In this document: piece by piece, positions 61,386-64,000 of the stretch
How the letters are laid out: the number at the start of each line of letters is the position of its first letter
Position numbering within the stretch: the first letter of the stretch is position 1
Program-made: the position numbers and the translations under genes
NCBI GenBank assembly: GCA_963849325.1
Contig: CAWKHF010000007.1
Location: 192,001-256,000, forward strand
From: an uncultured Planctomycetota bacterium
Lineage (GTDB): Bacteria > Planctomycetota > Planctomycetia > Gemmatales > Gemmataceae
Direction of reading: 5' to 3'
Length of the DNA stretch: 64,000 nt
Notes under the pieces: model-generated
Database searches by the model: none
What the model was told of the DNA's origin: nothing
Seen by the model: the letters and a program-made list of their open reading frames with translations, nothing else

Positions 61386-62100
61386 ATGCGTCCTCACGTG
61401 AAATGGCTGTTGACGGCGGCCCTCGTCGCCGTGGTGGCCGCGCCCGCCGCAGGCCAGCTCCTCCCGGGCGGCAGGATCCCCCTTTTGCAGAATGGCCTCG
61501 ATTCGTCGATCCTCCTGCTCAACTCCGGCGTCCAGAAAGAAATCAAGCTCAGCGACGAGCAGCGCGACAAGTTCCGCCAGATCGTCAAGGGGGTTCACGA
61601 CAAATATCAGCCGGAGCTGAACAAGGCCATCGCGGCCCGCGATCAGAAGCAGTGGCTCAAACTCATGGGTGAATCCACCCGCGGAGACGTCGGATCGCGT
61701 CCACAAAGCCCTCCCCGACCTTCTCCAGCCGGAACAGGCCAAGCGCCTCCAGCAGATCGAGTTGCAGGTCAACGGCTTCCTGTCTCTGAACAAGCCGGAC
61801 GTGCAGACACAGCTCAACCTCACCGAAAAACAACGCGACGAAATCAAGGAGATCAACGACGGCTTCAAGCAGGATCTCGCCGAGGCGGTGAAGGATGCGG
61901 CCGCTTCGGCACCGGAGAAACTCCTGGAAAAGGCACGTCAGGCCGTCGAGACGGCCCGCAAAATCAAGACCTTGGCGGACGCGGCCACCAAGAAGGCGTT
62001 CGGCACGCTGACCGACGAGCAGCGGAAAACGTGGAAAGAAATGACCGGGGAGAAGTTCGAGTTGAAGCTGGAGCTCCTGAACCGGCCGAGCAAACGCTAA
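61386..62100 (+). CDS. Secreted helical LTXXQ-repeat (Spy/CpxP-like) protein; frameshift near 61680
   Basis: VQKEIKLSDEQ, LQPEQAKRLQQI, LTDEQRKTWKEMTGEKF. Confidence 0.7.
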
Positions 62101-62181: not shown

Positions 62182-63175
62182 GTGACCAACGGCGACCGTT
62201 CGCTGGCCATCTTCATCGACTTCGAGAACCTCGCCCTGGGTTTCCAGGGACGGCGCGATCGTTTCGACATCGAGCGCGTGCTCGAACGGTTGGTGGAGAA
62301 AGGCAAGATCGTCTGCAAGAAGGCGTATGCCGACTGGAGCCGCTTCGCCAGCTTCACCACTCAGCTGCACGAATCGGCCATCGAGCTGATCGAGATCCCG
62401 CGCCGTGCCCAGAGCGGCAAGAACTCGGCCGACATTCGCCTGTGCGTCGATGCCATGGACCTGGCTTATTCCAAGGACCACATCGACACCTTCGTCGTCG
62501 TCTCCGGCGACAGCGATTTTTCGCCGCTGGTGTCCAAGCTCAAGGAGTTGGGCAAGCACGTCATTGGCCTGGGCATGCAGGAATCGACGTCCGACCTGCT
62601 GCGCGACAACTGCGATGAGTTCATCTACTACGAGGACCTGGGTAAACAGCCGGCGCTGGTGCCGACGATGGAGGCGCACCTGCCCGAGGCCAAGCGCAAG
62701 GCGTTCGCCCTGCTGATGGAGTCGCTGTTGGCCCTGCGCCGCGAGAACAAGGAGGTGCTGTGGTCGTCGATGATTAAGGACACGATGAAGCGCAAAAAGC
62801 CGTCTTTCAACGAGTCGTATCACGGCTACCGCACCTTCAGCGAGCTTCTCGAAGACGCCCAGAAGGAAGGACTGGTCGAGCTGGAGACGGACAAGCGCAG
62901 CCGCACCTATGTCGTGACGCGCTTCGGCGAGGAGTTGAGCGTCCCCGCGGCGCCCGAGATGGCCCCGGCGAAGAAAAAGTCGCGGCGGCGGCGCGGCTCG
63001 TCCAAGCGGAAGACGAAGGCGACCGACGCCGCCGAAGCGGGGAACGGCTCCTCCGCCACGTCGGACAGCACGCCGGCCGAATCCGCGGCGTTGCCGGAGG
63101 CGCTCTCCCGAGTCGGACGCGGAATCCTCGCCATCGGTCGAGTCCGGGATCGAGGACCACGACATTCTGTTTTGA
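62182..63175 (+). CDS. NYN (LabA/DUF88) domain plus OST-HTH/LOTUS protein; frameshift near 63110
   Basis: FIDFEN, GKNSADI, SGDSDF, FNESYHGYRTFSELL; likely true end ...EDHDILF*. Confidence 0.85.
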
Positions 63176-63255
63176 CCCGTGCCGTGGCCGGCGGTCTTCC
63201 TTGTCGTGAGCTACACTTGCGCCAGACGTGTTGCTCTCCATCGAGGAACGCCATC

Positions 63256-64000
63256 ATGAATCGCATCCTGCCGCGATTGTTCATCTCCGCGTTCGCGCTG
63301 TGCGGCGGACTGTCGGCGCACGCCGTCGAGCCGGCCGCTCCCGAGTCGTTCGCCGACCTGCATCGGCTCATCAAGCCGACCGCTAAGGAAGACCGTTGGA
63401 ACCGCATCCCCTGGTTGACGAGCCTGTGGGAAGCACGGCGGCAGGCGGCGGCCAAGGGCAAGCCGATCCTGCTGTGGGAGATGGACGGTCATCCGCTTGG
63501 CTGCACCTGAAACAACGGAGTCGCGGGCCGTGCGCTCGCTTTCTCCGATACCGAAGTCATCCGCCTGGCCACGGAGGAATACATCGCCGTCAGCGGCGAC
63601 GAGTGGTATCAGCGTCGCCGCCGGGACGCCGAGGGCGACTTCCTCCGCCGCGTGGCCGAGCAGAACCCCAACAAGGGCGACGAGGGCCAGAGCCGTCAGG
63701 GTCTGTACTGCTTCACGGCCTCCGGCCAGCTGCTGGCCTGCAACAACCACCAGGACGCCGACGCCGTGCGCGATCTCCTGGAGCAGGGGCTGGCCGCGTG
63801 GAACCGTCTGCCCGACGACGAGCGCCGGCCCGGCGCCGTCACGGTGCCTGCTCTCCGCAAGACCGACGCGGAGTTCACGCGCCAGCCGCCGGCCGGCGGA
63901 CTGGTCCTCAACGTCTACACGCGCATTCTCGATCGAGAAGGGCGACGGCCGATACTGCCGCGGCAGTTGCGACTTCCCCGGCGGCGAGCGGTCCGCCCGC
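63256..64000 (+). CDS. Secreted thioredoxin-like candidate selenoprotein (in-frame TGA 63508-63510), runs off the right edge
   Basis: GAGGA RBS, signal peptide, IPW...AAAKGKPILLWEMDGHPLGCT*NNG; the frame stays open to 64000. Confidence 0.75.
63516..63547 (+). promoter_or_regulatory. SECIS-like hairpin
   Basis: CGGAG-tc-GCGGGC-cgtgc-GCTCGC-ttt-CTCCG, beginning 6 nt after the TGA. Confidence 0.5.

Follow-up and report, generated by a model that had tools for sequence, protein, structure and literature searches.

Near the 3′ end of the window, a stretch of 64,000 nucleotides from an uncultured planctomycete of the family Gemmataceae (assembly GCA_963849325.1; positions 192001-256000 of contig C7 in genome G000), lies a gene with an in-frame TGA codon at 63508. 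The window very probably holds the 5′ two-thirds of this ~420-codon gene, whose product would be an exported two-domain selenoprotein. The G000 assembly comprises 8.16 Mb in 14 contigs, with a completeness of 84.69%. The features at the locus are as follows.

62182..63175, plus strand: NYN-domain gene, separate from the selenoprotein gene; its true end, TGA 63173-63175, is reached only via a frameshift.
63180..63195, plus strand: terminator-like hairpin after the NYN stop, a weak match to the consensus.
63243..63248, plus strand: Shine-Dalgarno-like GAGGAA, 7 nt 5′ of the ATG, read from the sequence.
63256..63324, plus strand: start codon (ATG 63256-63258) and putative signal peptide, residues 1-23 (MNRILPRLFISAFALCGGLSAHA), with a cleavage-type site between AHA and V, then VEP; called by eye.
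63256..63935, plus strand: first-frame part of the coding sequence, which takes in the signal peptide, a thioredoxin-fold domain (~residues 44-189) and the beginnings of linker and C-terminal domain.
63502..63504, plus strand: Cys83 codon TGC, presumed partner of residue 85; invariant in 22 aligned orthologs.
63508..63510, plus strand: TGA, very probably read as selenocysteine (Sec, U), residue U85.
63516..63547, plus strand: hairpin of the bacterial selenocysteine insertion sequence (SECIS) type, with lower stem CGGAG/CUCCG, upper stem GCGGGC/GCUCGC and apical loop CGUGC.
63930..63944, plus strand: approximate site of one additional base relative to the same-genus ortholog, the first frameshift.
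63936..64000, plus strand: coding sequence continued in the +1 frame (EKGDGRYCRGSCDFPGGERSAR), running past the window to a TAG that ends at window-equivalent 64514.

Under translation table 11, a single open reading frame (ORF; 62182..63510, plus strand) runs from the NYN gene into the selenoprotein gene and ends at TGA 63508-63510. It does so because the NYN gene is frameshifted and its first frame stays open: the NYN ortholog of a same-genus genome (G096) is 330 aa long and ends in ...STIDDRDIRF, and the G000 counterpart, which shares 94% identity over 254 aa with its same-genus ortholog, reads ...SGIEDHDILF followed by TGA in another frame. The fusion of NYN and selenoprotein genes is an artefact. 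An earlier note on this DNA had described the fused ORF, its end at TGA 63508 and a separate ribosome-binding site and ATG at 63256, all of which lie where it placed them. It also proposed a signal peptide, and MNRILPRLFISAFALCGGLSAHA, followed by VEP, does look like one: the call was made by eye, and a model of the same-genus ortholog adds a helix at residues 2-17. Orthologs are ~415-440 aa long with signal-like N-termini, and in all of them a basic stretch is followed by a hydrophobic one. The N-termini of three orthologs (L038, L040 and L041) read K/N-R-(R/K)-R-F-F-G-W before the hydrophobic stretch, and resemble twin-arginine rather than Sec-type export signals. The note had also held that the frame stays open past the TGA to the window end. 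With the TGA taken as sense, 248 residues are indeed encoded from ATG 63256 to the window end with no further stop, residue 85 being U in the context GHPLGC-T-U-NNG; comparison with the same-genus ortholog shows that over its last ~60 bases this open frame is not the true one.

The TGA is conserved. Six-frame searching with the read-through protein covered 151 genomes of the same order, 89 of which returned a match; among the best 150 of 173 match rows, exactly one TGA is present in 146 (one of these also with a TAG) and none in 4. In 28 of the 30 ortholog loci retrieved, the TGA lies inside the motif KPILLWEMDGHPLGC[TVG]-U-NN; this context count leaves out L036 and L045, each of which had one TGA in the six-frame search. 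The same column is occupied by TGA in 28 of 32 pieces of distant paralogs, by Arg (within LGNCR[WL]SV) in three, and the remaining piece is a fragment. Many paralogs replace C-x-U with a vicinal C-U (e.g., G-x-C-U-[ST]-A-G). In a phylum-wide sample of 301 genomes, G000 among them, 94 contain a match at E ≤ 1e-10, with one TGA in most rows, and thus the family occurs in about a third of the sampled Planctomycetota genomes. Of 27 orthologs, 10 stop with TGA at their normal C-terminus; the codon therefore has not been reassigned and remains a stop elsewhere.

Public databases hold the family almost wholly as truncated halves labelled ‘hypothetical protein’. For the most part, the 101 database homologs found at E ≤ 1e-3 represent only the sequence behind the TGA, and 8 of the 14 retrieved start at V/M-(A)GRALAF, a few codons past it; the gene is therefore routinely split by annotation, and gene callers meeting a stop explain the homologs that begin there. 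These same calls, which begin the second half at GTG or ATG just past the TGA, are what might be expected were the TGA a true stop separating two genes, one for an 84-residue secreted peptide and the other for a ~335-residue protein. Such an arrangement is barely conceivable, however, since the TGA would then split a thioredoxin fold and leave the second half with no signal peptide. Of the 150 listed matches, 146 moreover have the two halves collinear and in frame, full-length relatives carry Cys or other sense codons at the TGA site, and the RNA downstream shows covariation and frozen codons.

This downstream RNA can form a two-tiered hairpin. Its lower stem pairs 63516-63520 with 63543-63547 and its upper stem pairs 63523-63528 with 63534-63539, enclosing the loop CGUGC at 63529-63533; the hairpin begins 6 nt after the UGA and the apical loop 18 nt after it. 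The bacterial SECIS (bSECIS) model, as outlined in a review of 2026, specifies a loop of 3-9 nt with a G in its first two positions, an upper stem of 4-16 bp, a distance of 16-37 nt from the UGA and a minimum free energy (MFE) of at most -7.5 kcal/mol (PMC13188914). On all four counts the hairpin falls within these bounds, with a loop of 5 nt (G second, then U), an upper stem of 6 bp, a spacing of 18 nt and, for the 63 nt counted from the UGA, an MFE of -19.2 kcal/mol. Searching 63400-63700 against Rfam gave sub-threshold matches only, on the other strand.

The stem has been conserved as structure. Pairing in the upper stem reaches 98.8% over 27 distinct orthologs, and one pair alternates between CG, UA and UG. 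A loop-anchored alignment (A3) joined 24 of 28 ortholog rows to 24 of 28 Sec paralogs, the paralogs being chosen by their CCG[TG]G loop motif; the four Sec paralogs left out lack that motif and carry other hairpins. In the 41 distinct ortholog and paralog sequences so selected, 94.3% of cells in the 6-bp stem are paired, as against 34-53% when the partner strand is slid by 1-3 columns. Both sides of the pair have changed in five of the six stem pairs (38 cells), and none of 500 shuffles reached the covariation score. Codon usage points in the same direction: 21 orthologs share 41 invariant residues whose codons are 4- or 6-fold degenerate, and only G91 (GGC, 21/21) and R92 (CGT, 21/21), the two residues whose codons encode the hairpin loop, always use a single codon. 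Where Arg is invariant elsewhere (nine positions), CGT is a minor choice (0-5 of 21). The freezing of the loop codons thus indicates selection on the RNA and not on the protein.

The machinery for Sec insertion is present in G000. SelB scores 313.7 bits (cut-off 242) and SelD 386.9 bits (cut-off 125), and the tRNA-Sec scores 72 bits, with anticodon TCA according to ARAGORN. SelA is also above its cut-off, spread over three adjoining frames (C12:1294158-1295519; L002-L004). Within the order, selA was detected in 139 of 151 genomes, and the full-length matches in the other genomes are all in one open frame. No selA was detected in 12 genomes; ten of these have no match to the family either, and two have one.

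Forms with residues other than Sec also exist. Searched with a profile, 1.84 billion cluster representatives yielded 3363 matches at E ≤ 1e-3, of which 540 reach E ≤ 1e-30. Among the best 150 representatives, 119 start past the Sec column and 31 span it; in the latter, the column holds Cys in nine (five of them C-T-C), Ser in five, Asp in four, Ala and Gly in three each, Arg in two, and five other residues once each. The family is also expanded within genomes: one locus (L053; G122:C62:2800-14200) carries seven tandem paralogs, each with an in-frame TGA, and that genome has 13 matches in all. At three loci (L057, G004:C8; L058, G028:C267; L056, G005:C1), a Sec paralog adjoins a non-Sec paralog or lies within 6 kb of it; the Sec column of the non-Sec partner holds Arg (LGNCR[WL]SV), and the arrangement resembles a conserved Sec/non-Sec pair. 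G000 itself contains a distant paralog of the family with one TGA (C7:475788-476324).

The N-terminal domain could be placed by structure. Searches of the protein family databases were uninformative: in Pfam, the window protein matched only DUF3323 (E 0.043, below the cut-off) and the full-length ortholog no family at E ≤ 1; in NCBIfam, the window protein gave only an irrelevant match (E 0.17) and the ortholog none; and single-sequence and profile searches of the PDB yielded only chance matches (E ≥ 0.63). The Thioredoxin_7 hidden Markov model (PF13899) does not detect the gene in G000 at E ≤ 10. The same-genus ortholog (420 aa), modelled with AlphaFold2 from an alignment of 22 sequences, reached a predicted local distance difference test (pLDDT) score of 86.4 and a predicted template modelling score (pTM) of 0.84, and in the model residues 44-189 adopt a thioredoxin fold. 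The best structural match is 3f9u_B, an exported cytochrome c biogenesis-related domain (VIA Z 13.2, root-mean-square deviation 2.7 over 120 residues; Foldseek E 2.9e-4), followed by AGR3 (3ph9, Z 11.5), a Thermus thioredoxin (Z 11.2) and 3ira (Z 10.9), the top three scores (13.2, 11.5 and 11.2) extending over 118-120 residues. UAS domains (2dlx of UBXD7, Z 10.3; 2ec4, Z 8.9), DsbH (2ju5, Z 10.1), 7tkv (Z 10.1) and DsbD-gamma (1vrs, Z 8.4) also match. The fold of the N-terminal domain, as modelled, is that of thioredoxins of the Thioredoxin_7/DsbH/AGR/UAS type, and the TGA falls after strand beta1 (residues 71-76) and ahead of helix alpha1 (from residue 89), the place of the CxxC site in thioredoxins.

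The best matches belong to the subgroup of Thioredoxin_7, Thioredox_DsbH, DsbD-gamma, AGR2-AGR3-ERp18 and UAS domains, whose members are extracytoplasmic or luminal. The window family differs from this subgroup in having Sec and no CxxC, and in escaping the Thioredoxin_7 model. Two Thioredoxin_7-type matches elsewhere in G000 are further candidate selenoprotein genes, each with one in-frame TGA: one at C2:849695-849916 (L086) and a weaker one at C7:288515-288637 (E 0.02). The C-terminal ~225 residues, modelled alone, form long antiparallel strands (pLDDT 86.7). Their best VIA matches are barrels of the PagL, NspA and OmpW type (Z 6.3) and Rv2717c (Z 5.3), below a meaningful level, and Foldseek found no match at E ≤ 1e-3.

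In all likelihood, then, TGA 63508 encodes a Sec at the active site of a secreted redox protein with two domains. This reading is drawn from the conserved TGA, the covarying SECIS, the Sec machinery, the Cys homologs and a fold that spans the TGA. The earlier note had argued for a hidden secreted selenoprotein with a thioredoxin fold and a C-T-U motif, and each of these lines of evidence, together with the modelled fold, bears it out. Its SECIS-like hairpin with a G-containing loop falls within the bSECIS bounds and covaries strongly; homologs keep the TGA at one column between collinear halves, a point it had proposed to check (28 of 30 ortholog loci and 28 of 32 paralog pieces); Cys does occur at that column (9 of 31 spanning representatives); selA, selB, selD and tRNA-Sec are all found in G000; and database homologs mostly begin right behind the TGA, much as it had surmised of annotation splitting the gene.

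From sequence, we infer Sec insertion, export, a redox role and a role for the C-terminal domain, and a mechanism can be proposed along these lines. SelB and Sec-tRNA(Sec), recruited by the SECIS hairpin, would decode UGA85 as selenocysteine, and the signal peptide would take the protein across the cytoplasmic membrane. There, Sec would occupy the position of the nucleophilic Cys of a CxxC site, with C83, two residues upstream (C-x-U), as its presumed redox partner. The most likely chemistry would be a reversible C83-U85 selenylsulfide in an extracytoplasmic thiol/selenol oxidoreductase, and the beta-rich C-terminal domain probably binds a substrate or partner.

Several observations weigh against this reading. 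The hairpin energy is ordinary for such G+C-rich composition (z = 0.21 against shuffles); energy alone therefore proves nothing, and the significance of the hairpin comes from conservation and covariation. Two genomes, G083 (95% complete) and G089 (88%), carry a TGA-bearing homolog, and selA was not found in them. Within the model, U85 lies four residues before the helix, in the least confident part of the domain (residues 81-90, pLDDT ~60), and the hhalign comparison that favours this reading, by setting U85 on the first Cys of S-C-H-W-C in a Thioredoxin_7-type protein of the same genome, is weak (probability 32.9%). The 107 ORFs at 12 distant loci include no consistent partner gene and give no pointer to a substrate; within 5 kb, CarboxypepD_reg-domain ORFs occur at 4 of the 12 loci and genes for resistance-nodulation-division (RND) efflux at 2 of them.

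The condition of the window copy itself also counts on this side. Relative to the G096 ortholog (74.7% DNA identity), the G000 gene has two additional bases, one around 63930-63944 and the other around window-equivalent 64257, both at short runs of G or C, so that the protein is spread over three frames. With two frameshifts against a same-genus ortholog, the window copy could be a pseudogene, a dead member of an otherwise real selenoprotein family. This is unlikely, however: the three pieces are otherwise stop-free and well conserved, selA is split in this assembly yet in a single frame in the full-length matches of other genomes, and the NYN gene is shifted too. Given these shifts and the low completeness of the assembly, which is in 14 contigs, the two frameshifts are read as assembly indels, and both are probably assembly errors.

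The non-Sec homologs also bear on redox function. In 22 of the 31 full-length non-Sec homologs, neither Cys nor Sec is at the column, and the whole two-domain module, lacking Sec, makes up the extracytoplasmic C-terminal portion of Ser/Thr kinases (P0107, P0108, P0117 and P0145), of a fusion with an extracytoplasmic function (ECF) sigma factor (P0159) and of FecR-type anti-sigma factors (P0164 and P0166). The scaffold therefore also works without redox chemistry, and binding or sensing becomes possible. The selenoprotein might accordingly be a periplasmic binding or sensing module and not an oxidoreductase, its Cys-Sec pair ligating a soft metal or chalcogen or sensing redox state, and the beta domain relaying the signal or holding the ligand. 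Because the scaffold survives without its redox residue and is reused in signalling proteins, this is a serious rival, possible if doubtful. The vicinal C-U of many paralogs would suit it, and vicinal Cys-Sec motifs appear, among the entries of the 2026 review, in the metal and organometal proteins MbdU, SaoL and HgcA (PMC13188914). The numbers of paralogs, up to 13 in one genome with seven in tandem, would likewise suit diversified ligand recognition. Against it stands the likely placing of Sec at the CxxC-nucleophile site, which together with the C-x-C relatives is a classical signature of redox catalysis, and the 12 loci show no metal-handling neighbours.

A further reading is kinship with selenoprotein N (SELENON), to which the earlier note had likened the protein. 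SelN is linked to UAS domains and has the active-site motif SCUG. The window family shares with it a Sec-containing, thioredoxin-like domain that is luminal or extracytoplasmic, with a Cys next to or near Sec; some paralogs have G-C-U-x-x-G-like motifs, and UAS domains are among the structural matches (2dlx and 2ec4, as above). SELENON is, by the account in PMC10650576, a type II membrane glycoprotein of the endoplasmic reticulum with an EF-hand. Neither the window protein nor the full-length ortholog has an EF-hand or any other Pfam match, and the N-terminus resembles a signal peptide, with no type II anchor. SELENON depends on a eukaryotic SECIS in its 3′ untranslated region, whereas the SECIS of the window gene lies in the coding region. 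S-C-U-G is absent, the window gene and its orthologs having G-C-[TVG]-U-N-N and some paralogs x-C-U-[ST]-A-G. The thioredoxin domain comes first and an unrelated C-terminal domain follows, and among those of the 101 sequence homologs with a source name, none is called selenoprotein N. Bacterial proteins of the Thioredoxin_7/DsbH type also match better structurally. That the gene belongs to a bacterial SELENON family is thus highly unlikely; kinship exists at most at the level of the fold subgroup, and the features described set the family apart. The earlier comparison to SelN is not supported, its only link being UAS domains among matches of the Thioredoxin_7 type.

Closer parallels are found among bacterial thioredoxin-fold selenoproteins. 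As in these, the UGA stands in frame at the presumed redox site of the fold, a bSECIS-type hairpin lies directly downstream, Sec insertion would depend on selA, selB, selC and selD, and homologs in Cys form exist. Unlike these, the family has its partner Cys ahead of Sec (C-x-U or C-U) and not downstream of it, an extra beta domain of ~200 residues and up to 13 copies per genome, and none of their Pfam or NCBIfam models matches it at E ≤ 1. The VPGUxxT selenoproteins (NF041382/NF041383) are likewise thioredoxin-like, contain Sec and are known mainly from metagenomes; the window family differs in its motif and its two-domain architecture, and has no NCBIfam match at E ≤ 1. SELENOF (Sep15), a small eukaryotic thioredoxin-like protein of the secretory pathway, has the same C-x-U spacing in a different domain context.

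As to novelty, the 2026 review lists 119 families of prokaryotic selenoproteins, nearly every one under an identifier from Pfam, NCBIfam or CDD (PMC13188914). The family has no counterpart among those entries, and the protein matches none of their models (PMC13188914, Table 1). Literature searches returned no description of the family; one unnamed ‘hypothetical’ selenoprotein candidate, an entry of Table S9 in Kim et al. 2016, could be neither matched to it nor excluded. This is, then, a large, expanded and mostly planctomycete selenoprotein family that is uncatalogued: a new family of a known kind of protein.

The surroundings of the window gene hold some further features. The downstream FAD-oxidoreductase-like gene is common to four close relatives only, and the NYN gene to the same genus only. 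Upstream of the latter, a 143-aa ORF (61669-62100) is repetitive, charged and helical-looking (…LTEKQRDEIKEINDGFKQDL…LTDEQRKTWKEMTGEKF…). Directly after the TAG of the selenoprotein gene (L001 3013-3125; window-equivalent 64512-64624), about five GGGTTTA heptamers, a spacer of ~45 nt and an inverted CCCTAAA run together make up a long inverted repeat of telomere-like units, which lies just 5′ of the ATG of the FAD-oxidoreductase-like gene.

Recognition of the family would correct thousands of gene models and enlarge planctomycete selenoproteomes, by as many as 13 copies in one genome, and a selenoprotein family of this kind would explain why Sec machinery is nearly universal in the order (selA in 139 of 151 genomes). 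Its active-site geometry would be unusual: Sec takes the place of the nucleophile, and its partner Cys lies next to it or upstream. A bolder and rather doubtful proposal is that the family may be among the largest single-family expansions of bacterial selenoproteins, made up, throughout the planctomycetes, of periplasmic Cys-Sec modules of C-x-U and C-U type; these would be no housekeeping oxidoreductases but diversified sensors or scavengers of extracellular oxidants, soft metals or chalcogen species, whose scaffold was repeatedly re-recruited, with loss of Sec, as a sensor for Ser/Thr kinases and ECF anti-sigma factors. If true, the Sec and signalling forms together would amount to a novel class of receptor domain for redox state or ligands outside the cytoplasm, with a beta fold not seen before.

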